64,000 bases of DNA from an uncultured Gammaproteobacteria bacterium (GCA_964422865.1 CAYRCU010000001.1:5159-69158); one strand, 5' to 3'. Shown: positions 36,322 through 49,546, numbered from the stretch's first letter. The notes: generated by a model from the sequence alone, not told the origin. Program-made: numbers and translations.

Positions 36322-37362
36322 TTATCTCTGGCTTGAAAAACTTTTAAGTATTCCAAGAGACATATCGGTTTTTTTAATTGACTTTTGGGGATTTCTTTCT
36401 ACCTCGGATAAAGCTCTGATTGCATCAACGTTTTCGGGAATCACAATTGCTTCATTGTGAACTTGGTAATAAAAGGTAACATCACGCCCTTGCACATATA
36501 AAGAATCTTCCCAAAAAGCAACCTCCCACATATCTGCCCTCGGTCGTTTAAGATCTCGCATAAGCTCGACTAACTGATTTTCTGCAACCAATCCGTCTTC
36601 GTGCTTTACCGAAACAACCCGTGGTAAGGACTTTAACAAATTAACAATTTCATCTTTTGAAATTTCTTTATTTAATCTTATAAACGCTATATGAAGATGT
36701 CCCAGGGTCGTGGGAACCGCCATGGCCGCAGTAACGATATTTAAGCCGTGAATAACTTTTTGCGCGTCAATCCCTTGATGAGAAGGAATACTTTCTTCCA
36801 ACCTTATGGTCCCCAGTGGCCCTTGCTCGTGAGAATCAACCGGGTCTGATCCACGTCTAGCCAAAGCAATGTGGGCGACATCTAAAATCTGATCTCTTAC
36901 GAACGGATAAACGATTCTGCATATAGCTGTTGTATTGCAGGAAACCACTCTTAGACTCTTTTTACCTAAAGCATCACTGTAATTGACTTCTGCCACAAAG
37001 GAAAAACCGGTTAGATCGTGTTTCTCTCCGCCTTGAAATACAGATTTAACTCCAAACTGATCATACTTTTCTTTATTCTTCGCCCCAATTCCCTTTGGAG
37101 TTGCATCAACAATTATATCAACATATTTAAGTAGATTATCCAGATCACCCTTGCATTTATATCTGCTTGCCATTAGCTTTTGACATGCATCGGCATCAAC
37201 TCCATAAAGAGAAATGTTTGATTTTTTTATAGGGAAAAGCCGAAAGTCCGGTGTTCTGGCGGTTACTCCTACAAGTTCCATGTCGTCTTGTAAAAGTACA
37301 GCATCAGCAATTCTCTTACCGATAACTCCATAGCCATTTATTCCAACCTTAATCTTTTTCAT
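36322..37362 (-). CDS. Archaeal-type (type II) glyceraldehyde-3-phosphate dehydrogenase
   Basis: VGINGYGVIGKR Rossmann start and catalytic SCNTT motif, characteristic of type II GAPDH. Confidence 0.75.
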   Translation of the reverse strand: MKKIKVGINGYGVIGKRIADAVLLQDDMELVGVTARTPDFRLFPIKKSNISLYGVDADACQKLMASRYKCKGDLDNLLKYVDIIVDATPKGIGAKNKEKYDQFGVKSVFQGGEKHDLTGFSFVAEVNYSDALGKKSLRVVSCNTTAICRIVYPFVRDQILDVAHIALARRGSDPVDSHEQGPLGTIRLEESIPSHQGIDAQKVIHGLNIVTAAMAVPTTLGHLHIAFIRLNKEISKDEIVNLLKSLPRVVSVKHEDGLVAENQLVELMRDLKRPRADMWEVAFWEDSLYVQGRDVTFYYQVHNEAIVIPENVDAIRALSEVERNPQKSIKKTDMSLGILKSFSSQR

Positions 37363-37512
37363 TTAACAACAACCAGCAGCATTTTTTTTCTTATCTTTCT
37401 CTTTTAATTTCTTTCCACGATTATACAAAAATTTTCCGATGAAAGATTTCGGTTTTTCTTCAACTTTCTTGCTTTGTTTAGCGGTGCTGCTGCTTCCACA
37501 ACAATCTGACAT
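37363..37512 (-). CDS. 49-aa Lys-rich peptide with vicinal Cys pairs at both termini (MSDCC...AAGCC)
   Basis: Manual translation gives MSDCCGSSSTAKQSKKVEEKPKSFIGKFLYNRGKKLKEKDKKKNAAGCC. SD AAGGAAA lies 8 nt upstream. Its stop TAA abuts the GAPDH ATG, and it sits 14 nt after the Cu-ATPase stop. The ORF track shows only a longer artefactual 110-aa ORF here. Confidence 0.5.
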   Translation of the reverse strand: MSDCCGSSSTAKQSKKVEEKPKSFIGKFLYNRGKKLKEKDKKKNAAGCC

Positions 37513-37526
37513 GTTAATTGTTTCCT

Positions 37527-39677
37527 TTATATTGCATCTAAATTGACCTTTCTTAGTGTCATGGCGTTGACTACCACTATTACAGAAGACATGCTCATGA
37601 GTAAGGCGCCAACTTCGGGAGACAACCTGACTCCCCAGGGCACAAACAGCCCTGCTGCCGCAGGAATGGCTATGACGTTGTAGCCCAATGCCCAAACCAG
37701 GTTTTCAACCATTTTCCTGTATACTTTTTTAGCCAAAACTATCAGACTGACAATATCCTGAGGATTGCTTCGGGTCAAAACAACATCTCCTGCTTCAACA
37801 GCCACATCGGTGCCTGCTCCAACAGCTACTCCAACGTTTGATTGGGTTAAGGCGGGTGCGTCATTAACACCGTCACCCACCATCATAACTTTATTGCCCT
37901 CTTTCTGGAGTTTTTTAACATGCTCATATTTATTCTCCGGCAGTACTTGAGCAAAAACAGTATCGATGTTAAGTTCCTTTGCCACCCCGCCAGCCACTTC
38001 TTGACTGTCTCCTGTAAGCATTGCCACCTTAACATCAAGACTGTGAAGCTTGTCGATCGCCTTTTTAGATTCCGGTTTAATCTTGTCACTAAGGGCAATC
38101 AGGCCAATGATTCGTTTGGTGTTGGCTACAAAGGCGACTGTTTTTCCTTTCTCTGAAAGCTTCTGATAAAGCTGGTTTATCTTGTCGTCCAATAATCCCT
38201 TCTCTTTCATCAGCGTTCTGTTGCCAATTAAGTATTCCGTTCCTCCAACGCTGCCTTTTAGACCCTTGCCTGCCAAGTTTTTTATATTTTTAGCTTTTCT
38301 TGGCACGATTGCGTTTTCTTTTGCAAACTTAACAATAGAAACACCCAAAACATGTGAGGAGTGCTGTTCGATTGCAGAGATTAGTGAAAGAAGTTCTTTT
38401 TGTTTTGACGACAATTTGCTTTTGCTTACCTTTCCTTCCTCAATATCAATAACATCAGTTACACCAAACTCCCCAATTGTCAGAGTTCCGGTTTTGTCAA
38501 AAACAACATAGTCAACATCTTTTACAACTTCCAGCTTTGCCATATCTTTAATGAACACTCCGTTTTTTACCGCAAGCCTGGTAGCGATGGTCGAAACAGT
38601 GGGAATTGCCAGGCCCAAAGCATGAGGGCAAGCAATAACCAGGACAGTAATTGCCAATGTCATTGCAAACACAAAAGTCTGCCCCACCACCAAGGACCAA
38701 ATAATCAGAGTGAGAATGGCTACTGCCAGTGCACTAAAGGTAAGCCACCGGGAAGCTTTGTCTGCAATGCGCTGAGCGGTGGGCTTTGTCTGTTGTGCGG
38801 CAGATATTAGTTTTTGAATCTGCCCGATGGTGGAGCTTTCCCCGACTCGATCAAGAGTAATTTCAACTGATCCATCCAAACAAATTGCCCCGGCAATCGT
38901 CCTGTCACCTTTTGCCTTTTCAACGGGTTTGCTTTCTCCGCTGATGTGAGCTTCATTAAAATTAGCGCTACCTCTCAAAATAACACCATCGGCCGGGACC
39001 TTTTCACCCGGCAAAACCCGAACCACGTCTCCTTTTTTTAATTCATTAATATCAACGTCTCTTGTGCCTCCGTCAATAATGAGGTGGGCTTTCTTGGGCA
39101 AAAGCTTAGCTACCTCTTGCAGGGCATTGCCCGCAGCGCTAGATGATTTTGCCTCCAAGAAGTGGCCAAACAAGAGTACCCAAATAAGAGTTGAAATCTC
39201 CAGATAGAATTCGGCTTCGATTGAGGGCACAAAAGTTGAAACAGCAGAAAATAAGTAGCCTGCACCAACCGCTAAAGAGACCAGGGTCATCATCCCGTAC
39301 TGGCGGGCGCGAATCTCATGACTGGCATGTTCAAAAAACACCAATCCAAAGTAGAAAATGATTGTTGCCAGGCCAAATTCAAGGTAGGAGCGGAAAAAAA
39401 AGTCAGAGTAATTAAGAAAGTTAATGCCGAGTTTGCTGAAAATTGCCAGGGGAACCAGTAAAACAGTAACTATATAGAACCTACGAAGGAAGTTCTGAGC
39501 CGCCTCTGGCCCGGCCATCATGTTAGCGTGATCGTGTCCTTCATGGTTGTGGCTATGTTTCCCGACTTGATCCTCTTTGCCTTTTTCAACCAGGTCCATC
39601 CCACCACATTTAGGACACTTCCCGGGCTTATCGGAAATTACTTCCGGATGCATTGGACAAGTGTACATTTTACTCAT
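37527..39677 (-). CDS. copA: Copper-translocating P1B-type ATPase
   Basis: N-terminal YTCPMHPEV...CPKCGGM metal-binding motif. TM CPH (IACPHALG), DKTGT, HP, and the GDGVNDAP hinge. Confidence 0.9.
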   Translation of the reverse strand: MSKMYTCPMHPEVISDKPGKCPKCGGMDLVEKGKEDQVGKHSHNHEGHDHANMMAGPEAAQNFLRRFYIVTVLLVPLAIFSKLGINFLNYSDFFFRSYLEFGLATIIFYFGLVFFEHASHEIRARQYGMMTLVSLAVGAGYLFSAVSTFVPSIEAEFYLEISTLIWVLLFGHFLEAKSSSAAGNALQEVAKLLPKKAHLIIDGGTRDVDINELKKGDVVRVLPGEKVPADGVILRGSANFNEAHISGESKPVEKAKGDRTIAGAICLDGSVEITLDRVGESSTIGQIQKLISAAQQTKPTAQRIADKASRWLTFSALAVAILTLIIWSLVVGQTFVFAMTLAITVLVIACPHALGLAIPTVSTIATRLAVKNGVFIKDMAKLEVVKDVDYVVFDKTGTLTIGEFGVTDVIDIEEGKVSKSKLSSKQKELLSLISAIEQHSSHVLGVSIVKFAKENAIVPRKAKNIKNLAGKGLKGSVGGTEYLIGNRTLMKEKGLLDDKINQLYQKLSEKGKTVAFVANTKRIIGLIALSDKIKPESKKAIDKLHSLDVKVAMLTGDSQEVAGGVAKELNIDTVFAQVLPENKYEHVKKLQKEGNKVMMVGDGVNDAPALTQSNVGVAVGAGTDVAVEAGDVVLTRSNPQDIVSLIVLAKKVYRKMVENLVWALGYNVIAIPAAAGLFVPWGVRLSPEVGALLMSMSSVIVVVNAMTLRKVNLDAI

Positions 39678-39678
39678 T

Positions 39679-39945
39679 TTATTGTCTGCGCCTGAATACT
39701 TTCAATAGTTCCTTTATAGCTTTCTCTTTTTGGTTTTTAAACTGATCAGCCACATGAGTTTTAAGATGTCTTTCAAGAATCAAGGCGTCAAGACTCTTTA
39801 GAGAGTTTTGAATTGCAAGGGATTGGTCAAGCACGTTTGTGCAGTATTCCTCCTCTTCAATCATTTTATAAAGGCCATCTAATTGGCCTTTGATAATATT
39901 TATCCGCCTTTTTGCTTGCTTTTTAACGTCGTCAGATTTAAGCAT
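39679..39945 (-). CDS. CsoR/RcnR-family metal-sensing transcriptional repressor
   Basis: 88 aa with a DUF156 pattern and conserved Cys (YCTNV) and His (HLKTHV). Immediately upstream of copA. Confidence 0.7.
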   Translation of the reverse strand: MLKSDDVKKQAKRRINIIKGQLDGLYKMIEEEEYCTNVLDQSLAIQNSLKSLDALILERHLKTHVADQFKNQKEKAIKELLKVFRRRQ

Positions 39946-39992
39946 AATGCTTATACCCTACACCCCTCTGGGGTATATGTCAAGTATCTATT

Positions 39993-40880
39993 TTAATTTT
40001 TTACAACGTTAGCTGTAATCGTACTTGTAAGCTTGGGGAAGTTTGGATTGTCGGTATTAACATATATGGTGCGCGTTAACTCCCCTAGGTCGGTGTCATC
40101 TTTGTGTACTGCTGGATTGAAAGACACATTTACGGTCGTGCTCTCATATGTGTTCAATTCTTTTTTACTTACTTTAGCCGATGTACAGCCACAGGAAGTT
40201 GAAACGCGGGTGATTTTTAAAGGTAGTGGCGTGAAGTTGGTTAGGGTAAATGTCGTAGTTGGAACATCTCCGTAGATAACAGTGCCCAAATTATGATTGT
40301 CGGGTGTTATAACAACTTCGTTATTATGTTCTTTATACGCGTTAACTCCCCCGTCAAGATCATATACATTTGTGTATCCAAGACGTGCAATTTCTTGTGA
40401 GGCGTTTTTACTCATGCTTCCTGAGCGGCAATAAACTAGAATTGGTGTTGATTTGTCTTGGGGAAGCTTATCCAAGTTTTTTGATATTTCGTCAAAGGGA
40501 ATAAAAGCGTCGGTACCGGGTATATGGGTTTGCTCGGGTATGTGGACGTCAACCAGAAACCCGTCACCTTTTTTAACAAGTTCGGAAAATTGTGTTGGGC
40601 TGACCAGTTGTACTCCTTTTGAAGCAAAACTTTTTTGACCGGAGTTACTTTTATCGGATCCTGTGTTGCTGTATGCAAAAAATGTAACAACTACAACAAT
40701 TAATCCAAAAAAGGCTAACAAGCTGAAGGTTGCAGTTTTCCTAAAGCGGGCAGATTGAAGAAGTCTTCCTATTATCATTTTGTTAAACTCCACATCCGCC
40801 CCCGCCTTGTTGTGGTTGTGGAAGACTTTTAATTTTTTGTCGGGTTTCTTGATACCCTTGACCGCTGGAATATTGTGCAC
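39993..40880 (-). CDS. Rhodanese-domain plus DUF1573-domain membrane-anchored protein
   Basis: Rhodanese active-site loop YCRSGSMS. C-terminal DUF1573-like beta domain with SCGCTSAKV. TM near the N-terminus. Confidence 0.6.
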   Translation of the reverse strand: MHNIPAVKGIKKPDKKLKVFHNHNKAGADVEFNKMIIGRLLQSARFRKTATFSLLAFFGLIVVVVTFFAYSNTGSDKSNSGQKSFASKGVQLVSPTQFSELVKKGDGFLVDVHIPEQTHIPGTDAFIPFDEISKNLDKLPQDKSTPILVYCRSGSMSKNASQEIARLGYTNVYDLDGGVNAYKEHNNEVVITPDNHNLGTVIYGDVPTTTFTLTNFTPLPLKITRVSTSCGCTSAKVSKKELNTYESTTVNVSFNPAVHKDDTDLGELTRTIYVNTDNPNFPKLTSTITANVVKN

Positions 40881-41757
40881 TTAGAACCAGCTTTGAATCT
40901 ACTTCATTCCAATCTTGTCCTTGTTCCTCAAAGTATGTAGCAAGCTCGATATAGGTTTGAGGAAACCAATATGAATTAACTTTCAGTGCCGTATCATACA
41001 TTTTTCGTTCGCTTGCTCCATTTGCTACCATGAGCTCCAAAAGGCCAAGCATGGCCATTCCGTGATTGCAATCAGGGAAATGAGTTGAGTTTCCACAACA
41101 GGGTCTAAAAATTCCCCTTGACACACGATCAACCAGTTCCTGCTGTTCTTTTGTGAGTATGACATAGGGATGTGCACTGAAATGGTTCATCACATTGCCA
41201 CGACTAAGTGACCAGCCTCCGGTCGATGCAAACTTACTTGCATCTCCCCCATATTTTTGATCTGTCATTTCACCGTTTGTTAATATTTCATTTTTATTTG
41301 CCAAGCCAAATGCCCAAAGCATGTCAAGTAAAAACCTGCTATTTTGCGAGGTCATTACAATTTTTTTGTTCCACACCCCCGAAAGAATTTTTTCTTCGCT
41401 GTCTTGCAGGCCATTTTTAAAAAGCTCTTTGAACTTGGCTTCATCTATGACTCCATCTGCAACCATTCTTTTTCCCAGATCACCCCATGTTATTGGCAAC
41501 TCAACCCCTTCTTTTGAAATAACTGTGTCTTGTAATTTTGATGAGTCTATTTTTGACTCAGTCACCTTACCAGCCTTTTGGACTCCCTTATTTTTAGAAA
41601 TCAGGGTTGAAAAGCTAAACCTTGGTTTTATGTTAAAGCTAAAGACTTGAGTGAAGATAACGACTCCTAATAAAGTAAATGCTGCCGCTCTCCAAAACTT
41701 AATTGAATTATCTCTCTTTACGTTCTTGTTTATATTTTTTCTTACTAATCTGGGCAT
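40783..41757 (-). CDS. Secreted or membrane-anchored Cys/His-rich protein of unknown function
   Basis: N-terminal TM. Cys/His cluster FRPCCGNSTHFPDCNHGMAM. C-terminal QPQQGGGGCGV. No known domain recognised. Confidence 0.4.
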   Translation of the reverse strand: MPRLVRKNINKNVKRDNSIKFWRAAAFTLLGVVIFTQVFSFNIKPRFSFSTLISKNKGVQKAGKVTESKIDSSKLQDTVISKEGVELPITWGDLGKRMVADGVIDEAKFKELFKNGLQDSEEKILSGVWNKKIVMTSQNSRFLLDMLWAFGLANKNEILTNGEMTDQKYGGDASKFASTGGWSLSRGNVMNHFSAHPYVILTKEQQELVDRVSRGIFRPCCGNSTHFPDCNHGMAMLGLLELMVANGASERKMYDTALKVNSYWFPQTYIELATYFEEQGQDWNEVDSKLVLSAQYSSGQGYQETRQKIKSLPQPQQGGGGCGV

Positions 41758-41758
41758 A

Positions 41759-42265
41759 TCAAATGTAATAATTTAATAAAATGTAAATCCCCATGCTTAA
41801 AAGCAACATTGAGCCGAGACTTAAAATAATTGATTGAAAGGGGAACAAAACTTTTCCGTTTTTCTTTTTAATCAGAGTGTTTACCGTGTCAACTAAATAA
41901 AACAATATTCCTCCTGCAAGTATGCCGAATGTTAATTTAGGGAGATTAAATACAAGACCATTATGCTCATTTATAAGTCCAAATCTGTAGAAGGATACTA
42001 TTGTTGTAACAAAAATTAATAGATAGAAAACTTGCTTTTGGAATGGAATGTAAGTTTTATTAACTGAATTTGTGATCCAGAAACTCATAGCACCCAAGAA
42101 CGCACCCATCCAAACTCCGGTGATGGAATCGTCGATGCCCAGCACTCTTGAGAGTGACAACCCTGCGCCCGCACCCGCTACACAGAGTGGACAGTGCGCG
42201 TGAGCCGGTTTTGCAAATAATAAGCCCGTTATTGATAAGGGGATGCTGTATTTTAAGTTTTTCAT
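41759..42265 (-). CDS. Polytopic membrane protein with an N-terminal HCPLC motif
   Basis: Signal-like start. AHAHCPLCVAG. Four TM helices. Confidence 0.4.
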   Translation of the reverse strand: MKNLKYSIPLSITGLLFAKPAHAHCPLCVAGAGAGLSLSRVLGIDDSITGVWMGAFLGAMSFWITNSVNKTYIPFQKQVFYLLIFVTTIVSFYRFGLINEHNGLVFNLPKLTFGILAGGILFYLVDTVNTLIKKKNGKVLFPFQSIILSLGSMLLLSMGIYILLNYYI

Positions 42266-42897
42266 CTGATTACGGTTCCATCAAAGGTTAACTCTTTGAT
42301 TCCCGACGGTTTGCTAAAGGTTAGTCGCACGGCTCTATTGAAAGGCCCTACTCCCTGCGGACCATGAGCAGCAGGATTAAACTCCACAATTATTTTTGCT
42401 GTTTCTCCGGGAGGGATTTCAAAATTTATTGGAGGATTCTTATCTCCCGGGTGCTCCATGCCAAAAAATCTTGATTCTTTGCCGTTTAGTGACACCTTTG
42501 CCTTAGTACACATGCAGGAAGTTACAATTTTTTGCAATTTTGCGGTTTGAGTGGTCTCGTTTTTTACTTCATATTCTCTTGAGATTAAACCACCATTAAT
42601 CGGAACGTCACCGAGTTTGTAAGTTTCAGGACTAATTTGAATATCGGTAATCTGGACCTGAGATTGATTATTTTCGTCTGCAGTGCTTTCTTCTGTACCT
42701 TGCGAAAATGCAAAACCTATAACCAGAACGGCTGTAAGCGCAATAATTCCAAAAAATATTTTTATATCGCCAGATCCAAACTTGTTTATATCGCCAGATC
42801 CAAACTTGTTTATATCACTAGATCCAAACTTGTTTATATCACTAGATCTAAACTTGTTTATATCGCCAGATCCAAACTTGTTTATATCGTTTCCCAT
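42262..42897 (-). CDS. DUF1573-domain membrane protein with five N-terminal DINKFGSG repeats
   Basis: Tandem octapeptide repeats, one TM, and DUF1573-like TSCMCTKAKV. Confidence 0.55.
   Translation of the reverse strand: MGNDINKFGSGDINKFRSSDINKFGSSDINKFGSGDINKFGSGDIKIFFGIIALTAVLVIGFAFSQGTEESTADENNQSQVQITDIQISPETYKLGDVPINGGLISREYEVKNETTQTAKLQKIVTSCMCTKAKVSLNGKESRFFGMEHPGDKNPPINFEIPPGETAKIIVEFNPAAHGPQGVGPFNRAVRLTFSKPSGIKELTFDGTVIR
42760..42897. repeat. Five and a half copies of a 24-bp tandem repeat (GATCCAAACTTGTTTATATCGCCA) encoding DINKFGSG
   Basis: Direct inspection. Copies are near-identical, with a few substitutions. Confidence 0.8.
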
Positions 42898-43170
42898 TTA
42901 TTTTTCATTTCTCCCAAAAAGATCAACGATTTCTTCAATGAGTTTCTCTCTTTTGGATTTGGTTCCATGGATTTCATTAAAAACACATGAATGAAGATGT
43001 CCGTGAAGTATTAGTTCATCTACTTTTTTAAGTGCAGCTTGCACTGCTTTAGACTGATGAATCACATCAGGGCAATATGCATCTTCTTCAACCATACTGC
43101 GCACTTTTTTAAGATGCCCTTCTGCTCTTGCTAATCTATCTATTGCCTGCTTCTTGACAGTTTTATCCAT
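42898..43170 (-). CDS. csoR: CsoR-family copper-sensing repressor (canonical Cys-His-Cys form)
   Basis: 90 aa with C in YCPDV, HGHLHSC, and helix pattern matching CsoR. Confidence 0.75.
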   Translation of the reverse strand: MDKTVKKQAIDRLARAEGHLKKVRSMVEEDAYCPDVIHQSKAVQAALKKVDELILHGHLHSCVFNEIHGTKSKREKLIEEIVDLFGRNEK

Positions 43171-43233
43171 AATACCTATTCTATCCTTATCCCCCCGTTA
43201 GGGATATTATTTATAATAATGGATTGATTATTC

Positions 43234-43836
43234 TTGTCAATGGGGGAAAATAACAAAAATAAAATGAAAAAGAAAACCGATCAAAAAGAAATCGAGAAAT
43301 TATTAAAAAAAGTGGCAGATGTTACAAAAGAAAACAAGATTGATTTGTCCTCCGGTGAAGACCTTTCCGTGGGAATAATGAACCTTATTGCCATAGAAGA
43401 GCATCTTTTTTACACTTCACAAAAAACCGGAAAGAAAAAATATTTGGGTCTTCTTAATGAGATCCGAGCAATGCGAACAGAGCTTATGCAGGAGATAATC
43501 AAAGATTATGAAGGGGAGGTTTGGTGTATTAGTAAGCATTTGCTGGCTGCTTCGATGAGGGTGATGGAAGTTGGAACAAAGGAGCTTAAGAAAGGCAACA
43601 AAGACAAAGCTTGGAATTTATTTAGAAAGAGTTACAATCTTTACTCTTTATTTTGGGGCATAAACCTTGGCGTTGTTAAAACCGATAAAATAAAGCGTGG
43701 TGACAAAGGAGTGAATTTAACAAACAAGAGTTTGCAAGCTTCATTTATAGATGATGATAATAAAAGTGGGTCTGCTTCACTATTTAGCAAGCTTGGGCAG
43801 ATTGTTCAAAAGGCAATAGATTGTTGCAAAGAGTGA
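43234..43836 (+). CDS. Hypothetical Lys-rich protein ending in a C-terminal vicinal Cys pair (…AIDCCKE)
   Basis: 200 aa, divergent from csoR. C-terminal CC motif like merA and the 49-aa peptide. Confidence 0.4.
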   Translation: MSMGENNKNKMKKKTDQKEIEKLLKKVADVTKENKIDLSSGEDLSVGIMNLIAIEEHLFYTSQKTGKKKYLGLLNEIRAMRTELMQEIIKDYEGEVWCISKHLLAASMRVMEVGTKELKKGNKDKAWNLFRKSYNLYSLFWGINLGVVKTDKIKRGDKGVNLTNKSLQASFIDDDNKSGSASLFSKLGQIVQKAIDCCKE

Positions 43837-43897: not shown

Positions 43898-45307
43898 CTA
43901 GATACAGCAACTTAATTTTGAGATGTCTTTCTTAAAAGAAAGCGCTGCAAGTTTTATTCCCTCGCTTAGTGTGGGGAACATTGGCAGCGAATTAATTACA
44001 TCATCAATAGTGTTTTTGTTTTTTACTAGCATCATGGCTTCAGCTATTAACTCTCCGGCTTGGGGAGCAAGAATATGAACTCCAAGAATTTCGGCTGTTT
44101 CTGGGTGAATACTCATACTAATCAGGCCTTCTGTTCTTCGCAGTATAGCGGCTTTGGGAACATGCTTGAAAGAGACTGTGCGACATGCGCAAGTATTCAT
44201 TCTTTTCATTTGTTCTTCCTCGGTTAACCCTACACCTGCTAGCTGGGGATCAGTAAAAATAGTATAGGGAACAGCATTGTAATCAATGTTATTCTTTGTA
44301 ATTTTGAGAGCGTTTTCGGCAGCTAAAGTTCCTTCACGACCGGCAGTCGTCTCAAGCCTGAGTGGTAAATCAACAACATCTCCAACCGCAAAAATGTTTG
44401 GATTATTGGTTTGAAAATTCTCATTAACCACTATAGACTTTCTATCATTTACTTTTACATTGGTAAGTTGCAGTCCCAAACCATTAGTATTTGCGGTCTT
44501 GCCTGTTGCCAAAAGGATTTCATCACAGATTATTTCATCTTGTTTGCCATCTACCTCATAAACAACAATTTTCTTTTCACCTTCTTTTCTTACGCTTTTT
44601 ATTGGAGCATTTGTTTTAACTGTAATACCTTCTTTTTTAAATATTTCTAATAATCGTGCCACCAGTGCTTTGTCTCCTGTTCTAAAGACTGCATCGCCTC
44701 TAACAAGCATTGTTACTTTTGTTCCAAATCGAGCAAACATTTGAGAAAATTCCAAGGCTATTGCCCCTCCACCAACAACCACCAGCTCTTTTGGTTGAGT
44801 TTCCAGTTTTAACGCTTCAATGTGAGTTATATATCCAGCTTTCTTTATTCCATCAATAGGAGGAATATTGGCTGTAGAGCCAGTTGCAATAATAAATTTA
44901 TCTGCTTGCAGCCTCTCTCCATTTACTTCAACTTCTGTTTCAGAAATAAACTTTGCTCGCCCTTCAATTAAAGTAACATTTTCAAGATTTGCCAGTACTC
45001 CCTCATACTTCTCATTGCGCATTTTCTCAACCAAGGAAAGCTCATCTGCTATAACTCTTTGAAAGTCAAAGTTTTTAACTTCAAGCTCTATGCCGGGGAC
45101 ATTGTGATTTTTTGCCAAGTGTAGTAATTCTCCTGCATAAAGCAGAGTTTTAGATGGAACACAACCAACATTTACACAAGTTCCTCCTAGAGGAAGCCCG
45201 TCATTTATTATTGCAGTTTTGGCTCCCAACTCATCGGCTTTAATGGCAGCCGCAAAAGCACCAGCTCCACCACCTATAATAACTAAATCAAACTGCTGTT
45301 CTGTCAT
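43898..45307 (-). CDS. merA: Mercuric reductase (core MerA, no NmerA domain)
   Basis: FAD motif GGGAGAFAAA. Redox disulfide GGTCVNVGCVPSK. C-terminal ...KLSCCI vicinal Cys pair characteristic of MerA. Confidence 0.75.
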   Translation of the reverse strand: MTEQQFDLVIIGGGAGAFAAAIKADELGAKTAIINDGLPLGGTCVNVGCVPSKTLLYAGELLHLAKNHNVPGIELEVKNFDFQRVIADELSLVEKMRNEKYEGVLANLENVTLIEGRAKFISETEVEVNGERLQADKFIIATGSTANIPPIDGIKKAGYITHIEALKLETQPKELVVVGGGAIALEFSQMFARFGTKVTMLVRGDAVFRTGDKALVARLLEIFKKEGITVKTNAPIKSVRKEGEKKIVVYEVDGKQDEIICDEILLATGKTANTNGLGLQLTNVKVNDRKSIVVNENFQTNNPNIFAVGDVVDLPLRLETTAGREGTLAAENALKITKNNIDYNAVPYTIFTDPQLAGVGLTEEEQMKRMNTCACRTVSFKHVPKAAILRRTEGLISMSIHPETAEILGVHILAPQAGELIAEAMMLVKNKNTIDDVINSLPMFPTLSEGIKLAALSFKKDISKLSCCI

Positions 45308-45675
45308 TTGTTTTCAGTATAAATCGTATCAGAGTAGATTGTCGCCTTATATGGTTCTATCGCTTTAATAATTTGTTCGTCGCTTACTTTTCTTTTCTCG
45401 TAAATTACCCACCCCTCACCGTCAAGATTATCCGTAAAACCCACATAAGCATCGATTACACCGCCAACTGCCTTCAGATTGTATTCTGCGCCAACTGCGC
45501 ATGAAGTACACCACATTCCTTCGATTGATAATTCTGCCTTGTATAACTGTCGTCCATTAAGCGAACCCAGTACTGCCGAAACTCCATTATTTGAACCAGA
45601 AATCCTATTTTTTGTCATAATCCCTCCTAAAATAGCTGTGCTTAGTACCACAATTAGGAAAATAATTTTTCTCAT
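45304..45675 (-). CDS. merP: Secreted HMA-domain mercury/metal-binding protein (MerP-like)
   Basis: Signal peptide plus GMWCTSCA (MxCxxC) HMA motif. Confidence 0.6.
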   Translation of the reverse strand: MRKIIFLIVVLSTAILGGIMTKNRISGSNNGVSAVLGSLNGRQLYKAELSIEGMWCTSCAVGAEYNLKAVGGVIDAYVGFTDNLDGEGWVIYEKRKVSDEQIIKAIEPYKATIYSDTIYTENK

Positions 45676-46046
45676 AAATTAGTGTCGAATCTTAGTTGAT
45701 AAACCCAGGGTGCAATCAAAGGTGTGACAATAAAAGTCAAAAAATAATAAAGCAAGATTGCTACTAAGAATGAACCGCCAAACATCAATAACTGTTGTTC
45801 TTTGGCTAAATGTTTACTTCGGCAGTTTTTTCTATATAACTTATAAAACCCAAACCCTAAAACCATTATCCCAAAGCCAAGAAAATACGGCTTACGGTAG
45901 CCAATAGATAAAGCAGTTGATGCACTGCCTACTCCCAGTAGAATTAGTGCGAGAGGGCCAATGCAACACAGGGAGGCGACAAGGGCTGATAACACACCCC
46001 ATTTCAGAGATGAATCAGTGGTTCTTTCCTGTTCGTTTTTTTTCAC
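45672..46046 (-). CDS. merT: Mercuric transport protein MerT-like
   Basis: First TM with a vicinal Cys pair ASLCCIGPLALILLG, as in Tn501 MerT. Three TM helices. Confidence 0.65.
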   Translation of the reverse strand: MKKNEQERTTDSSLKWGVLSALVASLCCIGPLALILLGVGSASTALSIGYRKPYFLGFGIMVLGFGFYKLYRKNCRSKHLAKEQQLLMFGGSFLVAILLYYFLTFIVTPLIAPWVYQLRFDTNL

Positions 46047-46435
46047 AATAATTCTTTTATTTTTTCATTTTTTAAAGAGTAATAAATAGTTTGCCCTTCT
46101 CGACGAGTTGCCACTATCCCGGCTTTGCGCAGCAGTTTTAATTGATGGGATACTGCTGATACAGTGGTGCCCAGAATTTCTGCCATGTCACAAACACAAA
46201 GTTCGTTTAATTCACCAATCAGTTTAATAAGCTTATAGCGTGTTTCTCCTGAAAGCAGTTGGTGAAGCTTAATCTTTTTGGCCAAGCTCGTATCTTTTTT
46301 TAGAGCGCTGTAAACCTTATTGATCTCTTTCTTTGACAAAGTCGGGCCAACACAAATGTGACCCAAGTGTTTTACTTTCATGATGTTTGAATAAGTGTTC
46401 AAATAAAGAATATTAGGTGAATCCTGTTCTGTCAA
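46043..46435 (-). CDS. ArsR/SmtB-family metal-responsive transcriptional regulator
   Basis: ELCVCDMAEILGTTVSAVSHQLKLLRKAGIV gives a metal-binding CVC plus a wHTH recognition helix. It is the first gene of the mer-like operon. Confidence 0.7.
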   Translation of the reverse strand: MTEQDSPNILYLNTYSNIMKVKHLGHICVGPTLSKKEINKVYSALKKDTSLAKKIKLHQLLSGETRYKLIKLIGELNELCVCDMAEILGTTVSAVSHQLKLLRKAGIVATRREGQTIYYSLKNEKIKELL

Positions 46436-46469: not shown

Positions 46470-47111
46470 TTAGTGGGCTAATTTTTCCGGTGATTGATTT
46501 ATATAAGTGTCTATGTATTTTTGAATTAGGGCTTTGTCAACTTCGACAAGCTTCATCATTCTCCCCCAAGAAGCAACTACAACCGAATCCTCGTTTTCGT
46601 CTCGTTTGGTTATAACAACGCTGTTGTTGTTATTTTTAGCTATACTTTTAAGCTTGTTGATACTTCCTTTGTCTAAATCTTTGTATGTGATCCAGATTCC
46701 GCCGTGTTCTAAATTGTGCACTAATTGCTCATCGGGAAGCTCTTTGTCATAAAACCTCCAATCGGCAGGTGTGGACCAGTGCGGTCCTGATGTAGGAGGG
46801 TTTGTTTTATATAAAACTGTTTCTTTTGAGCTTATGTGGTTGACTCCCTCAATTTTAAATTCTTCAACTTTACCCTCTAAGGACACCTCATCTACTTTTT
46901 GCTCAAACGCAATTTCCTCCGGGGATTTTTTGCTAACCAGATAATAGCCTGCGACTACAATGACCAAGACAGCAATCAAAACCGCAATATTTCGCAACTT
47001 TTTAATAGTTGCTTGTTGTTTGGTTTTTTTTCTTTTGAGTTCTTTAATCTTTTTCTTGCGATCTCTTTTGGTCAGATCATCCCATTCTTTAGGATAGTCC
47101 ATAAATTTCAC
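46470..47111 (-). CDS. DUF3105-like membrane-anchored protein
   Basis: NPPTSGPHW...LVHNLEHGGIWI motifs. N-terminal TM. Confidence 0.5.
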   Translation of the reverse strand: MKFMDYPKEWDDLTKRDRKKKIKELKRKKTKQQATIKKLRNIAVLIAVLVIVVAGYYLVSKKSPEEIAFEQKVDEVSLEGKVEEFKIEGVNHISSKETVLYKTNPPTSGPHWSTPADWRFYDKELPDEQLVHNLEHGGIWITYKDLDKGSINKLKSIAKNNNNSVVITKRDENEDSVVVASWGRMMKLVEVDKALIQKYIDTYINQSPEKLAH

Positions 47112-47116
47112 CTCCT

Positions 47117-47857
47117 TTACTGCTTAAGCTCCAGCATAAACGCCGATGTTCCTAACTTCTGTAAAAAATAAGAGGAAACCAGTGAAAACTTTCCGGTAAA
47201 AATTAGTATCCCAAAAATTACCAACAATATTCCTGAGATTTTGTTTATCACCGGAGCATAGGTGTTAAATTTCTTGATTGAAGGAAACACTTTATCAAAA
47301 AAAAGTCCCAGTAATACGAATGGTGTTCCAAGACCAAGAGAAAAAAACAGCAAGAGAGGAAGAGCCTCGATGAATGTGGATTGAGATCCTGCCCAGAAAA
47401 GAATGGCTGCAAGTACCGGCCCGACACACGGTGTCCAGGCAAATCCAAAAGTTGTTCCCAATAAGAAGGCACCAGATGCGGCGCCGCGGTTTCCTTTAAA
47501 TTTTGTTTGATAAGTTTTGTTTAGAAATGGGATGGATACCAGTTTGGCAAACTGCAGACCAATAACTATTAATAGTAATCCTCCAACTTTATTAATAAGC
47601 GGCCGATAGAGCGTTAAACTTCTGGCAAAAGTATTAACTGTTAGACCAAGTAGAAGAAAAATGAATAAAAAACCTGAAGTAAACACCAGCGCATTTTTCG
47701 TAAATACGGCTTTGTGTTTGGCACTCAATCCTTCCGGAGCACTGCCCGCAAGATATCCCACATACGCGGGAGCAATTGGAGCTAAGCATCCTGCAAAAAA
47801 GGTTAAAATGCCTGCCGTGTAGGCAATGGCAAAATTAAATATTGACAGAGGAACCAT
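47117..47857 (-). CDS. ccdA: Cytochrome c-type biogenesis/thiol-disulfide transporter CcdA (DsbD TM domain)
   Basis: Six TM helices with Cys in TM1 (FFAGCLAP) and TM4 (FAWTPCVGP). Confidence 0.7.
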   Translation of the reverse strand: MVPLSIFNFAIAYTAGILTFFAGCLAPIAPAYVGYLAGSAPEGLSAKHKAVFTKNALVFTSGFLFIFLLLGLTVNTFARSLTLYRPLINKVGGLLLIVIGLQFAKLVSIPFLNKTYQTKFKGNRGAASGAFLLGTTFGFAWTPCVGPVLAAILFWAGSQSTFIEALPLLLFFSLGLGTPFVLLGLFFDKVFPSIKKFNTYAPVINKISGILLVIFGILIFTGKFSLVSSYFLQKLGTSAFMLELKQ

Positions 47858-47872
47858 TATTAAAAGTGTTTG

Positions 47873-48637
47873 TCATGACTTAGACAACATATCATCAATT
47901 GCTTGTTTTAATTGCGGATAAGGAACTGCCCCAGGAATCAACCTGGTGTTACCTGTTTTTGTATCAAGCAGGATGTTGCCCGGTGTTCCCGTTACACCTG
48001 CTTTTATCCCACTTTGATAGTCATCTTCTACATGTTGAGTGTATTTTCCACTATCAAGGCATGACTTGAAGGCTGATTCATCTATTCCTATCTCGGAAGC
48101 CAGTTTTGGTAAATCACTTATGTTAAGACCGTTATTGCTTGGAGTTGTTTCAAAGATTTTATCTATTAGTGCCCAGAAGCCTTTTTCACCTGCCAGCTCG
48201 TTTGCGCACTCTGCTGCCTCGGCTTCTTTGTCTGCTTTTGAGTGAATTTGGTCAAGGGGGAAATGTCTATAAATCCACATTACTTGTCCATCATATTCCT
48301 CGATCGCCCGTTGTGCTGTTGAATGAAAACTTTTACAGAAAGGACATTCCAAATCTGAATATTCTATTAAGGCGATTCTTGCGTTTTTGTTGCCTCTAAT
48401 GTGATCGTTTTTTCTTACAGGTTCGACATCGCCCGCTGTGGGCTGGGTGGGTTGCTTTGCTCCAGAGCCTGTTCCGGCCGAGCCGTTAATTTCTGCCAGA
48501 CCAGCAGAGGACGTCTTGTTTTCAAGATTCTGCACTTTTTGCCAGAGTATGCCTACGGCGAAAGCGAAGCCCACTAAAATAATAACTAAAATCGGCGCCG
48601 ACTTTTCAAGAAGATTTTCTTTTACCTTAGAAGACAT
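47873..48637 (-). CDS. DsbA-family thiol:disulfide oxidoreductase (membrane-anchored)
   Basis: Thioredoxin fold with CPFC active site (ECPFCKSFH). N-terminal TM. Confidence 0.7.
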   Translation of the reverse strand: MSSKVKENLLEKSAPILVIILVGFAFAVGILWQKVQNLENKTSSAGLAEINGSAGTGSGAKQPTQPTAGDVEPVRKNDHIRGNKNARIALIEYSDLECPFCKSFHSTAQRAIEEYDGQVMWIYRHFPLDQIHSKADKEAEAAECANELAGEKGFWALIDKIFETTPSNNGLNISDLPKLASEIGIDESAFKSCLDSGKYTQHVEDDYQSGIKAGVTGTPGNILLDTKTGNTRLIPGAVPYPQLKQAIDDMLSKS

Positions 48638-48670
48638 ACTACAGAGTGTAGTAGGAGTTTTGATCCTTTG

Positions 48671-49546
48671 TCAACAGTTAAAATGTGTGGAACATTGATA
48701 TTTACTGCAGTTTGTTTGGTTTGAGTTATCTGTAATTTGAACCGTGTGGCTCTGTGCGGGAAAGAGAAAGAGCAAAGCGCCAATTATCAGTGTCACCCCT
48801 GAAATAGCAAAATTCATTTTTAGAGGCTTGTAGTCGGATCTTTCAGAAAAATTAGGGAACAGATCGAATTTTTGCTGTGCTTTTATCTTTACAAGGGCTA
48901 GTTTGAGATGTTTTGCACTTTGCTGCTTGCCCGTGGCAAAATTATCCGCTTCTTTTTCCAGTGTAATTCTCATCTTGCGTGTGTAGTCTTTAAAGATCGG
49001 GATAAAAAATAAGGATGAAGATAAAATTTCACTTATAACAACTATTAATGGATGCCTTCCTTGCAAGTGATAATACTCATGAAGAATAACTGATTCTAAT
49101 TCTTTTTTGTTTAGCTTGCCCATGAGTCCTGTTGAAATTATTATTTTTGGCTTTAGCCAGTCAGCGGTCAGGGCAATGTCGCTTTTTGAATTAATAAGTA
49201 TTACTTTGTCATTTTTAATTTTATTTTTTTTAAGAATTTTTAGGAGTTTTAAGTTGTTCTTTGGAGCTTTTTTTTGCAACAAATCTGACAATTTTCTTTT
49301 TGTTTTTATGTAGGAAAATATTACTTTTACAAAAAAAACAATTGCTATAAAAATTGTTAATATAATCAACAAGAACCCGATGTGATGCACTATGGAAAAA
49401 AGCAAGTTTGAAGAGACTTGTCTGCATGCTTTAGCGAAGTGAATAAAAGTCAACAAGGCATACTTATTTAAAAGCAAGATTAAAAGGTAGATGGAAATTG
49501 TAAAAATTGACAAGGTGCCAAGAAAAAATTGCGTTTCCTTTCTCAT
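48671..49546 (-). CDS. BlaR1/MecR1-like M56 peptidase signal transducer (CopY-partner type)
   Basis: Polytopic membrane protein with HEYYHLQGRH zinc-peptidase motif. Confidence 0.65.
   Translation of the reverse strand: MRKETQFFLGTLSIFTISIYLLILLLNKYALLTFIHFAKACRQVSSNLLFSIVHHIGFLLIILTIFIAIVFFVKVIFSYIKTKRKLSDLLQKKAPKNNLKLLKILKKNKIKNDKVILINSKSDIALTADWLKPKIIISTGLMGKLNKKELESVILHEYYHLQGRHPLIVVISEILSSSLFFIPIFKDYTRKMRITLEKEADNFATGKQQSAKHLKLALVKIKAQQKFDLFPNFSERSDYKPLKMNFAISGVTLIIGALLFLFPAQSHTVQITDNSNQTNCSKYQCSTHFNC

Follow-up and report, generated by a model that had tools for sequence, protein, structure and literature searches.

A CsoR-linked operon around a putative CcmH-fold cysteine protein as a candidate surface thiol relay in copper defence

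The 64-kb window analysed here (the whole stretch of 64,000 nucleotides (nt), CAYRCU010000001.1:5159-69158 of assembly GCA_964422865.1, deposited as an uncultured Gammaproteobacteria bacterium) carries on its minus strand, at positions 39993-43170, a five-gene operon that begins with a gene encoding a CsoR repressor. We propose, with a probability of about one half, that this operon specifies a copper-induced surface thiol relay organised around a 324-amino-acid (aa) protein with a CcmH-like fold, in which direct capture of Cu(I) is favoured and redox cycling is linked to it. Most likely, such a relay would capture Cu(I) from the adjacent CopB-type pump and/or repair thiols oxidised by copper. 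The family of the 324-aa protein is almost always found beside copper-export pumps and is therefore probably a new part of copper defence. That Cu(I) is bound, that the site cycles between redox states, which way transfer runs and which proteins are the partners are all inferred.

Organization of the operon

A preliminary description of this DNA had placed five minus-strand open reading frames (ORFs) in this region; all five were recovered at the same coordinates, together with every motif that it quoted. The first gene, csoR1 (42898-43170), encodes a 90-aa CsoR repressor of the Cu(I) type. It is followed by a gene (42262-42897) encoding a 211-aa, membrane-anchored, immunoglobulin (Ig)-like DUF1573 protein (PF07610) with an SCMCT (CxC) motif and, as previously described, five DINKFGSG-type repeats in its N-terminal tail. 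The third gene (41759-42265) encodes a 168-aa polytopic membrane protein with an AHAHCPLC motif, hereafter called TM4. The fourth (40783-41757) encodes the 324-aa core protein ('CCGN' family), which carries FRPCCGNSTHFPDCNHGMAM and a C-terminal GGGGCGV and comprises an N-terminal transmembrane (TM) anchor, a helical ectodomain with a CcmH-like three-helix core and a putatively flexible C-terminal arm with C322. The last (39993-40778) encodes a 261-aa membrane-anchored protein in which a rhodanese domain (PF00581, CRSGSMS loop) is fused to a DUF1573 domain (PF07610, SCGCT motif). This fusion had been correctly recognised; its most likely start is ATG 40778, not GTG 40880, which matches the independent call of a 261-aa gene on a near-identical contig. 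With this start, the junctions between the genes measure 0-4 nt, as expected for an operon. Furthermore, homologues at 59-99% identity run to thousands, so that chance ORFs can be dismissed.

The 168-aa and 324-aa proteins have no sequence match in Pfam, NCBIfam or the PDB, in agreement with the earlier statement that none of the proteins resembles known copper proteins. Their description as uncharacterised holds in that no family model covers either of them, but the fold of the 324-aa protein has a CcmH-like core. The latter had been called a secreted protein; it is extracytoplasmic, but an N-terminal TM helix (residues 18-42) anchors it, and it is not freely secreted. Likewise, the module, described as periplasmic, does face outward but is better worded as extracytoplasmic and membrane-anchored.

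Predicted regulation by two CsoR paralogues

Cys-His-Cys ligands with a Tyr/Glu second shell are the set of Cu(I)-sensing CsoR proteins. CsoR1 (PF02583, 84.1 bits for a cut-off of 22.8) has the ligands C33/H58/C62 in C-x24-H-x3-C spacing and second-shell Y32 and E80, as read from its sequence, and C33, H58, Y32 and E80 are invariant in 37 CsoR family members (CsoR1 of the window and 36 from related loci). The best promoter-like site found in a scan of 37-44 kb, TTGACA-16-TATTAT (11/12 match; 43213-43240, minus strand), precedes csoR1. In minus-strand reading, a CsoR-type operator palindrome with a GC-tract, ATATCCCTAACGGGGGGATA (43188-43207), starts 6 nt past this site, between csoR1 and a divergent gene encoding a 200-aa protein. 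CsoR control of the operon, as proposed in the preliminary description, is supported by the x-C-H-C ligands, by Tyr32 and Glu80 and by the position of the palindrome after a near-consensus promoter; csoR1 is thus predicted to encode the Cu(I)-responsive repressor of the operon. A CstR-type persulfide sensor, which would have x-C-x-C ligands, was considered and rejected since the His ligand H58 is kept (as in 37/37 family members).

The neighbouring gene csoR2 (39679-39945, minus strand; PF02583, 78.9 bits) encodes a CsoR paralogue and heads the gene of a CopB-like P1B-type ATPase (37527-39677, minus strand; TIGR01511, 553 bits; PF19335) that has a CPH motif, an N-terminal HMBD (YTCPMHPE) and a His-rich stretch. 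The ligands of CsoR2, C35/H60/H64 (x-C-H-H), depart from the canonical copper fingerprint; His at the last ligand position is the majority form in the family (27 of the 37 sequences). Within the 47-nt gap upstream of csoR2, a TTGACA is immediately followed by a second CsoR-type box, ATACCCCAGAGGGGTGTA (39959-39976), and the two boxes are the only matches of the strict pattern in the 64 kb. ATACCCCAGAGGGGTGTA fits the consensus ATACCCC-N2-4-GGGGTAT that is present upstream of half of the CsoR genes in related loci (18/36), and the TATCCCC...GGGGATA variant of the csoR1 box recurs ahead of csoR in L009, the locus with the closest synteny. The half-sites of the two paralogues differ (TATCCC...GGGATA for csoR1 and ATACCCC...GGGGTAT for csoR2), which therefore suggests that csoR1 and csoR2 are regulated separately, in an insulated manner. 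No terminator-like site was seen between the csoR1 unit and the csoR2-ATPase unit. As read from its regulatory sites, the region is made of two adjacent, predicted CsoR-controlled units.

Association with copper resistance genes

Hidden Markov models built from the window proteins were run on all ORFs of 88 fetched loci, 80 of which constitute the species-level set. Many of the locus contigs are incomplete and neighbour counts are therefore lower bounds. At least one P1B ATPase, CsoR or HMA gene lies within 10 kb of the 324-aa gene in 69 of the 80 loci. Taken separately, P1B ATPases are found in 56 loci, DUF1573 proteins in 43, CsoR in 36 and HMA proteins or domains in 27. In many loci of Parcubacteria, 0-150 nt separate the 324-aa family gene from the start of the ATPase gene that follows it. 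The linked ATPases carry CPH (27, the commonest), CPC (18) or CPD (6) motifs. When CsoR ligand type (C-H-C or C-H-H) was compared with ATPase type (CPC/HMA or CPH/HMBD), the small numbers revealed no firm correlation. The preliminary description had suggested a search for linkage to csoR or copA in other genomes and would have counted its absence as contrary evidence; the outcome was strongly positive and such an absence is clearly not observed, since 69 of the 80 loci have a P1B ATPase, CsoR or HMA gene. Its proposal of a four-gene copper/sulfur module is supported in the copper link and refined in the gene set: only the 324-aa family is near-universal in related loci, whereas the rhodanese (9/80) and TM4 (13/80) are variable accessories.

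In Pfam-annotated loci, the neighbours also include other metal regulators (ArsR-YHS, two-component systems) and multicopper oxidases. The 324-aa protein could thus be imagined as a Sco- or PCuAC-like chaperone delivering copper to extracytoplasmic enzymes such as multicopper oxidases, which are encoded close to the family in L007 and L008; a membrane anchor and a Cys/His site are features that it shares with Sco. However, these two loci (one looked-up protein) are two of eight Pfam-annotated ones, the island of the window has no cuproenzyme gene and a CsoR repressor implies expression at copper excess, not at copper need. Cuproenzyme maturation is therefore very improbable, the least probable of the explanations considered.

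Another candidate substrate is mercury. A mer-like operon (43898-46435, minus strand), only about 700 nt beyond csoR1, encodes an ArsR-family regulator, MerT (PF02411), a membrane-anchored HMA/MerP-like protein and a 469-aa MerA (TIGR02053, 537 bits), the last one without N-terminal HMA domain. Hg(II) handling typically relies on CC, CxC and CPxC motifs and on a C-terminal Cys arm, devices that MerA and MerT use and that are also encoded here. The csoR1 operon would then be an accessory of the mer operon or a general soft-metal system, capturing and importing Hg(II) for MerA in the manner of MerP and MerT, with CsoR1 answering thiophilic metals. However, MerA is found near the 324-aa family in 4 of the 80 loci, versus 56 for P1B ATPases; the ligands of CsoR1 are those of a Cu(I) sensor and its operator is of the CsoR type; and TM4 shows neither a PF02411 match nor fold similarity to MerT. 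Since MerA is present in so few loci, the mer operon of the window is a neighbour in a metal island rather than the usual partner, and a primary role in mercury resistance is highly improbable.

Conservation and predicted fold of the 324-aa family

More than 7,222 relatives of the 324-aa protein, all unnamed, were found at 90% clustering; at 50% identity, the number of clusters is 548. When a single genome was scanned for each species, at least 586 genomes were found to encode a member. The best 80 loci are almost all labelled Patescibacteria or candidate phyla radiation (CPR), and four metagenome-assembled genomes with Gammaproteobacteria-type labels share the gene order of the Patescibacteria loci. 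The family has no Pfam or NCBIfam model, and neither the single protein nor the profile gave a significant PDB sequence match. Across the 63 diverse members from which conservation was read, W148, R218, C220, C221, N223, D229, C230, N231, H232, G233 and C322 are invariant, and the C-terminus is nearly always ...GGGGCG[V/A/I].

Domain fusions were found in several members. For instance, four 50%-identity clusters (P0135, P0140, P0192, P0268) contain rhodanese-CCGN proteins, one (P0130) contains HMA-CCGN proteins and one family member has a DsbC_N-CCGN fusion. Moreover, many members of 450-550 aa carry an N-terminal polytopic membrane domain with a GCPxCG motif. In ten long members, the N-terminal extensions match no Pfam domain; one of them has a C-terminal BNR domain. 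As far as fusion is a guide, these proteins tie the components of the operon (rhodanese, HMA and Cys-motif membrane domains) together.

AlphaFold2 modelled the 324-aa protein, from the alignment of 63 sequences, with a predicted local distance difference test (pLDDT) score of 89.6; in the model, the TM anchor (18-42) is followed by a helical ectodomain (70-310) and then by a C-terminal tail. As this tail is modelled with low confidence, the C-terminal Cys arm is probably flexible. Both solved CcmH structures (2hl7, 2kw0) were the sole Foldseek matches with a low root-mean-square deviation, in local alignments with non-significant E-values. The three-helix-bundle domain of CcmH/NrfF (PF03918) is present in the model, and the N-terminal helical subdomain of about 130 residues (70-200) has no structural match. 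When residues 202-255 of the family were compared by hhalign with a CcmH profile (12 sequences assembled from E. coli chromosome and plasmid records), the P-value was 6.7e-4 and the probability 27%; with E. coli CcmH alone, the P-value was 0.077. In this alignment, C221 corresponds to the second Cys of the CxxC motif, N223 to the conserved Asn and D229-C230-N231 to the D-S-N motif.

This register is strengthened by two further observations. On the one hand, a CcmH of Bacillota (Cytobacillus, L100) lacks CxxC but has PPGC-x8-C, with the spacing and position of C221-x8-C230. On the other hand, a bridging CPCCG-x7-PCCG domain, absent from the window, is fused N-terminally to DUF1573 in proteins encoded beside the 324-aa gene in four loci (L001, 9139-9528; L007, 9014-9790; L009, 2716-3498; L012, 10958-11752). 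By hhalign and in the same register, this family matches CcmH (P 8.8e-6, probability 83%) as well as the 324-aa family (P 1.7e-4, 49.5%). From sequence comparison and modelling, we conclude that the core of the 324-aa protein is probably a divergent CcmH-superfamily domain within a larger ectodomain. The LRCxxC active-site motif is not found in the 324-aa protein; FRPCCGNSTHFPDC gives a CC-x8-C arrangement that keeps only the position of the second CxxC Cys. Furthermore, the 88 loci were devoid of CcmF and CcmE homologues and of ORFs containing at least two CXXCH motifs. A role in cytochrome c maturation was therefore rejected: the 324-aa protein is not a CcmH in function.

DUF1573 and rhodanese proteins

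The two DUF1573 proteins of the operon score 44.4 and 55.6 bits with PF07610, and the S-C-x-C-T motif is found in 71 of the 73 DUF1573 ORFs of related loci. Selenoprotein forms of this CxC motif, with UGC, are known (PMC9312934). The DINKFGSG repeats of the 211-aa protein are encoded by a 24-bp tandem repeat of 5.4 copies (42761-42889; Tandem Repeats Finder, 94% matches) that translates into five DINKFGSG units. None of the 73 homologous DUF1573 ORFs has this repeat, the closest ones starting with MGKDVKIF. A metal-binding or otherwise functional motif was considered and rejected because the unit has no Cys, His or Met, the DNA repeat is near-identical (94%) and the homologues lack it. To judge from its sequence, DINKFGSG is a recent, lineage-specific repeat expansion in the cytoplasmic tail. 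The 24-bp repeat (42761-42889) may serve as a strain marker.

The rhodanese domain (PF00581, 51.6 bits) has its catalytic Cys in a six-residue loop, and the loop CRSG[SG]MS is identical in all 16 rhodanese homologues; the protein is thus a predicted extracytoplasmic sulfurtransferase. Since it is encoded in 9 of the 80 loci, it is not essential to the core function. This bears on a further explanation, sequestration of metals as sulfide or persulfide, in which the surface rhodanese would load sulfane sulfur (e.g. from thiosulfate) and the dithiol of the 324-aa protein would reduce it to sulfide or protein persulfides that trap Cu(I), as well as Hg(II) from the substrate pool of the neighbouring mer system, in the form of insoluble sulfides on the cell surface. 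The reaction of a rhodanese persulfide with a dithiol protein to give H2S and a disulfide is established for single-domain rhodaneses with thioredoxin-like partners. This scheme is consistent with the strict conservation of the catalytic loop and with two kinds of rhodanese fusion, one with the 324-aa domain (four 50%-identity clusters) and the other, in the window, with DUF1573. However, the rhodanese is present in 16 of the 88 loci (9/80) whereas the 324-aa protein is universal in them, genes for thiosulfate or for sulfur uptake were not encountered there and the literature searches brought up no precedent. Sequestration as the main function is hence improbable.

Putative membrane partners

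The AlphaFold2 model of TM4 (pLDDT 83.8) consists of a signal-peptide helix and five further helices. Just past the signal-peptide-like helix, where the confidence of the model dips exactly, an invariant (A/V)-x-A is followed by H-C-P-L-C. Cleavage before His24 would leave an N-terminus on the outer face that reads His1-Cys2-Pro-Leu-Cys5, and this mature end is a plausible candidate for a metal or thiol-exchange site. TM4 has a single Cys pair and shows no Pfam match to the DsbD/CcdA superfamily, with hhalign probabilities of at most 1.5% to canonical CcdA and to the two CcdA-like types described hereafter. A weak hint of similarity (P 0.0037) connects it with the fused GCPxCG membrane domain.

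Membrane proteins of the CcdA superfamily (about 260-300 aa), found by iteration from the canonical CcdA of the window, adjoin the 324-aa gene in 60 of the 88 loci. Type A proteins (L001, 13335-14195; L007, 11115-11960; L020, 6731-7594; L029, 10999-11880; and about 35 other loci) carry FAPCC and CCAPVL, one per half, and align with canonical CcdA with an hhalign probability of 98.9%. They have vicinal CC in both half-repeats, have no Pfam hit on record and are usually encoded next to the 324-aa gene. With four thiols predicted at the centre of the membrane, type A resembles a site for soft metals rather than a relay for electrons. Type B proteins, of about 260 aa (L023, 8346-9125; L035, 3281-4063; L041, 8374-9153; and about 18 other loci), carry NPC and CxFPC and align with canonical CcdA at 95.7%; in Parcubacteria-type loci, their genes are located just upstream of the 200-aa and 324-aa genes. 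TM4 never occurs together with CcdA-like proteins (0/13 loci versus 60/75, Fisher p 3e-8, kinship ignored). It therefore appears to fill the slot of the CcdA-like membrane partner by non-orthologous displacement.

These partners, as well as the CcmH-like fold and Cys register of the 324-aa protein, also fit a copper-induced reductive or isomerising pathway without copper carriage, similar to DsbD-DsbC, ScsB-ScsC or CcdA-CcmG-CcmH. In such a pathway, the 324-aa protein would be a CcmH-type thiol:disulfide oxidoreductase that reverses non-native disulfides or persulfides formed on surface proteins under copper catalysis, while removal or transfer of sulfane sulfur would fall to the rhodanese. 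The dsbD and dsbC genes of E. coli and the scs genes of Salmonella are needed for copper tolerance. CcdA-superfamily neighbours in 60 of the 88 loci, a canonical CcdA and a DsbA-like protein in the island of the window, the DsbC_N fusion of one family member and the UGC selenoprotein form of DUF1573 (PMC9312934) point in the same direction. However, a dithiol oxidoreductase needs two Cys whereas four Cys and one His are invariant here. The partner proteins, with vicinal CC in both halves or CPxC, are nearer to the metal sites of MerT and P1B ATPases than to CcdA, which has a single Cys per half. TM4 has one Cys pair on one face and so cannot alone shuttle electrons across the membrane. The HMA fusion and the translational coupling to the ATPase in many loci also argue against pure redox repair, the main rival explanation, which we consider somewhat unlikely.

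Proposed function of the operon

In the copper-induced surface relay that we favour, a rise of cytoplasmic Cu(I) would release CsoR1 from its operator and allow transcription of the operon, the divergent 200-aa gene being probably derepressed too. Four outward-facing, membrane-anchored proteins with Cys motifs would then be placed at the surface beside the CopB-type Cu(I) exporter. The central one would be the 324-aa protein, in which the CcmH fold, with Cys at the redox-pair positions (C221/C230), would have gained C220, H232 and the glycine-tethered C322. By analogy, it might be to CcmH what Sco is to thioredoxin, that is, an oxidoreductase fold turned into a Cu(I)-binding or thiol-exchange site. 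The C322 arm may pick up Cu(I) released by the pump, or attack a copper-oxidised disulfide or persulfide, and pass the Cu(I) or thiol cargo to the C220/C221/C230/H232 cluster. The CxC motifs of the Ig-like domains and the Cys of the rhodanese could be further acceptors or sulfur donors. Finally, the polytopic HCPLC protein would be the membrane partner, in the slot held elsewhere by CcdA-superfamily proteins with Cys pairs. Direct Cu(I) capture is favoured because vicinal Cys, a His and a terminal Cys are typical of soft-metal sites and the C-terminal arm recalls the swinging arm of MerA. The HMA fusion, the CC and CxC motifs and the tight coupling to the ATPase likewise point toward metal binding.

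Several points weigh against this proposal. The evidence fits both Cu(I) binding and pure thiol redox chemistry, and the CcdA-type neighbours, the DsbC_N fusion and the selenocysteine variant of DUF1573 point toward the latter; given the CcmH-like core, thiol-redox chemistry is therefore equally likely as direct metal binding. The relation to CcmH itself shows a modest direct profile similarity (probability 27%), and the Pfam CcmH model matched none of the 63 members at E<=10; the clustering of C220, C221, C230 and H232 is predicted through this alignment with CcmH. Moreover, TM4 has no detectable relative of known function by Pfam, NCBIfam, PDB or profile comparison, and the rhodanese is missing from most loci (present in 16/88, or 9/80 at species level). 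The co-occurrence statistics were computed without phylogenetic correction. Lastly, the neighbouring mer operon makes Hg(II) a possible additional substrate.

A bolder version of the proposal extends the relay to the whole superphylum. The 324-aa family would be a hitherto unrecognised class of extracytoplasmic copper protein, with a CcmH-fold Cys3-His site and a swinging C-terminal Cys, acting across Patescibacteria as the dedicated acceptor of Cu(I) exported by P1B ATPases and replacing proteins of the CusF, CopC and CopL types. The HCPLC protein, double-CC CcdA-like proteins and fused GCPxCG domains would stand in for one another as its membrane partners with Cys pairs and, where present, the rhodanese would add sulfane sulfur that locks copper in a sulfide or persulfide complex. 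Taken as a whole, this extended scheme is speculative and rather unlikely.

Other genes of the metal island

The gene divergent from csoR1 (43234-43836, plus strand) encodes a 200-aa cytoplasmic protein and shares the operator region. Homologues are found in 25 of the 80 loci, in nearly all of them directly upstream of the 324-aa gene. The protein has no Pfam, NCBIfam or PDB match; the invariant features of its family are EEH (E53-H55), WCxxKH (W95-H100) and a C-terminal DCC(D/K)E, and a role as chaperone or sensor of copper in the cytoplasm is conceivable. A 49-aa Lys-rich ORF (MSDCCGSS...AAGCC; 37363-37512, minus strand), read from the sequence 14 nt past the stop codon of the ATPase gene, has no homologue among related loci and is tentatively regarded as a possible small thiolate peptide. 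Unrelated small membrane peptides of the form MMWMM..CC...CCH are encoded in three other loci (L057, L065, L078). Directly downstream of the copper unit, a gene (36322-37362, minus strand) encodes a 346-aa protein with weak matches to the N- and C-terminal domains of glyceraldehyde-3-phosphate dehydrogenase, and it looks like a divergent, perhaps archaeal-type, form of this enzyme.

Beyond the mer-like operon, the metal island continues on the minus strand (46470-49546) with genes encoding a DUF3105 protein, a canonical CcdA, a DsbA-like protein and a BlaR1-type M56 peptidase. The canonical CcdA (DsbD_TM, PF02683) and the DsbA-like thioredoxin-fold protein (PF13462/PF01323) are encoded at 47117-48637, 5 kb away from the operon; judging by their position, they could possibly supply it with reductant. 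A set of M56 and DsbA-like genes also follows the copper ATPase gene in L001.

Comparison with known systems and significance

The 324-aa protein shares with CcmH/NrfF/CycL proteins (PF03918; 2hl7, 2kw0) a membrane-anchored, outward three-helix bundle with reactive Cys in the loop between helices 1 and 2. However, it lacks LRCxxC and a Pfam match, it has the additional subdomain of about 130 residues, C220, H232 and the C-terminal Cys arm, and its family is linked to copper pumps instead of haem lyases. The Scs (ScsABCD) and DsbD-DsbC copper-tolerance systems of Proteobacteria are likewise copper-associated sets of extracytoplasmic Cys proteins in which a DsbD/CcdA-superfamily membrane protein is a usual neighbour. 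In these systems, the soluble partner has a thioredoxin fold and regulation involves CpxR or CueR, whereas the operon has a predicted CcmH fold, CsoR, an unrelated HCPLC protein as putative membrane partner in the window, and includes rhodanese and DUF1573 proteins. The likeness to Sco1/SenC (CxxxC + His) is one of analogy only: an oxidoreductase fold with extra Cys/Cys/His ligands, membrane-anchored and facing outward. The folds are unrelated, Sco serves oxidase assembly whereas the operon would be switched on by copper excess, and copper binding by the 324-aa protein is putative.

As for the Mer relay (MerP CxxC to MerT CC to the C-terminal CC arm of MerA), it resembles the operon by its CC/CxxC motifs, by a membrane helix that opens with a Cys pair and by a flexible C-terminal Cys arm, and a mer operon is adjacent. 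However, TM4 and the 324-aa protein have no sequence or fold similarity to MerT and MerP, and the partner is a copper exporter, MerA being found in 4/80 loci. The CstR-controlled cst operon of Staphylococcus aureus, which encodes the rhodanese CstA, also has a CsoR-family repressor upstream of a rhodanese operon. There, the differences are that the His ligand (C-H-C) and the Tyr/Glu shell of Cu(I) sensors are retained in CsoR1, that the rhodanese is extracytoplasmic, that no persulfide dioxygenase or sulfide:quinone oxidoreductase is encoded and that the conserved neighbours are copper pumps.

A literature search that combined copper or CsoR with DUF1573, CcmH, rhodanese and Patescibacteria/CPR found no account of this module, and none of the 324-aa, 168-aa and 200-aa families is covered by a Pfam or NCBIfam model. 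Precedents exist both for the CcmH fold and for thiol systems tied to copper (Scs, DsbD/DsbC). What is new, as predicted from sequence, is a CcmH-fold family in copper loci across a superphylum, with a Cys3-His-plus-arm site and interchangeable membrane partners with Cys motifs.

Much of bacterial diversity belongs to the Patescibacteria, whose genomes are tiny and of which hardly any have been cultured, and we know of no account of how their surface handles toxic metals. Three further uncharacterised families emerge as putative partners in these loci, namely the HCPLC membrane protein, the double-CC CcdA-like proteins and the cytoplasmic EEH/WCxxKH/CC protein. Direct biochemistry should be feasible on the ectodomain of the 324-aa protein, given its small size and expected solubility, even if the organism is not cultured. 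The family is encoded in at least 586 species-level genomes and linked to copper pumps and sensors; given its CcmH-like core, what was a 'hypothetical protein' becomes a candidate Cu(I) acceptor or copper-stress thiol oxidoreductase. A fold of cytochrome c maturation would also have been reused in organisms without c-type cytochromes.

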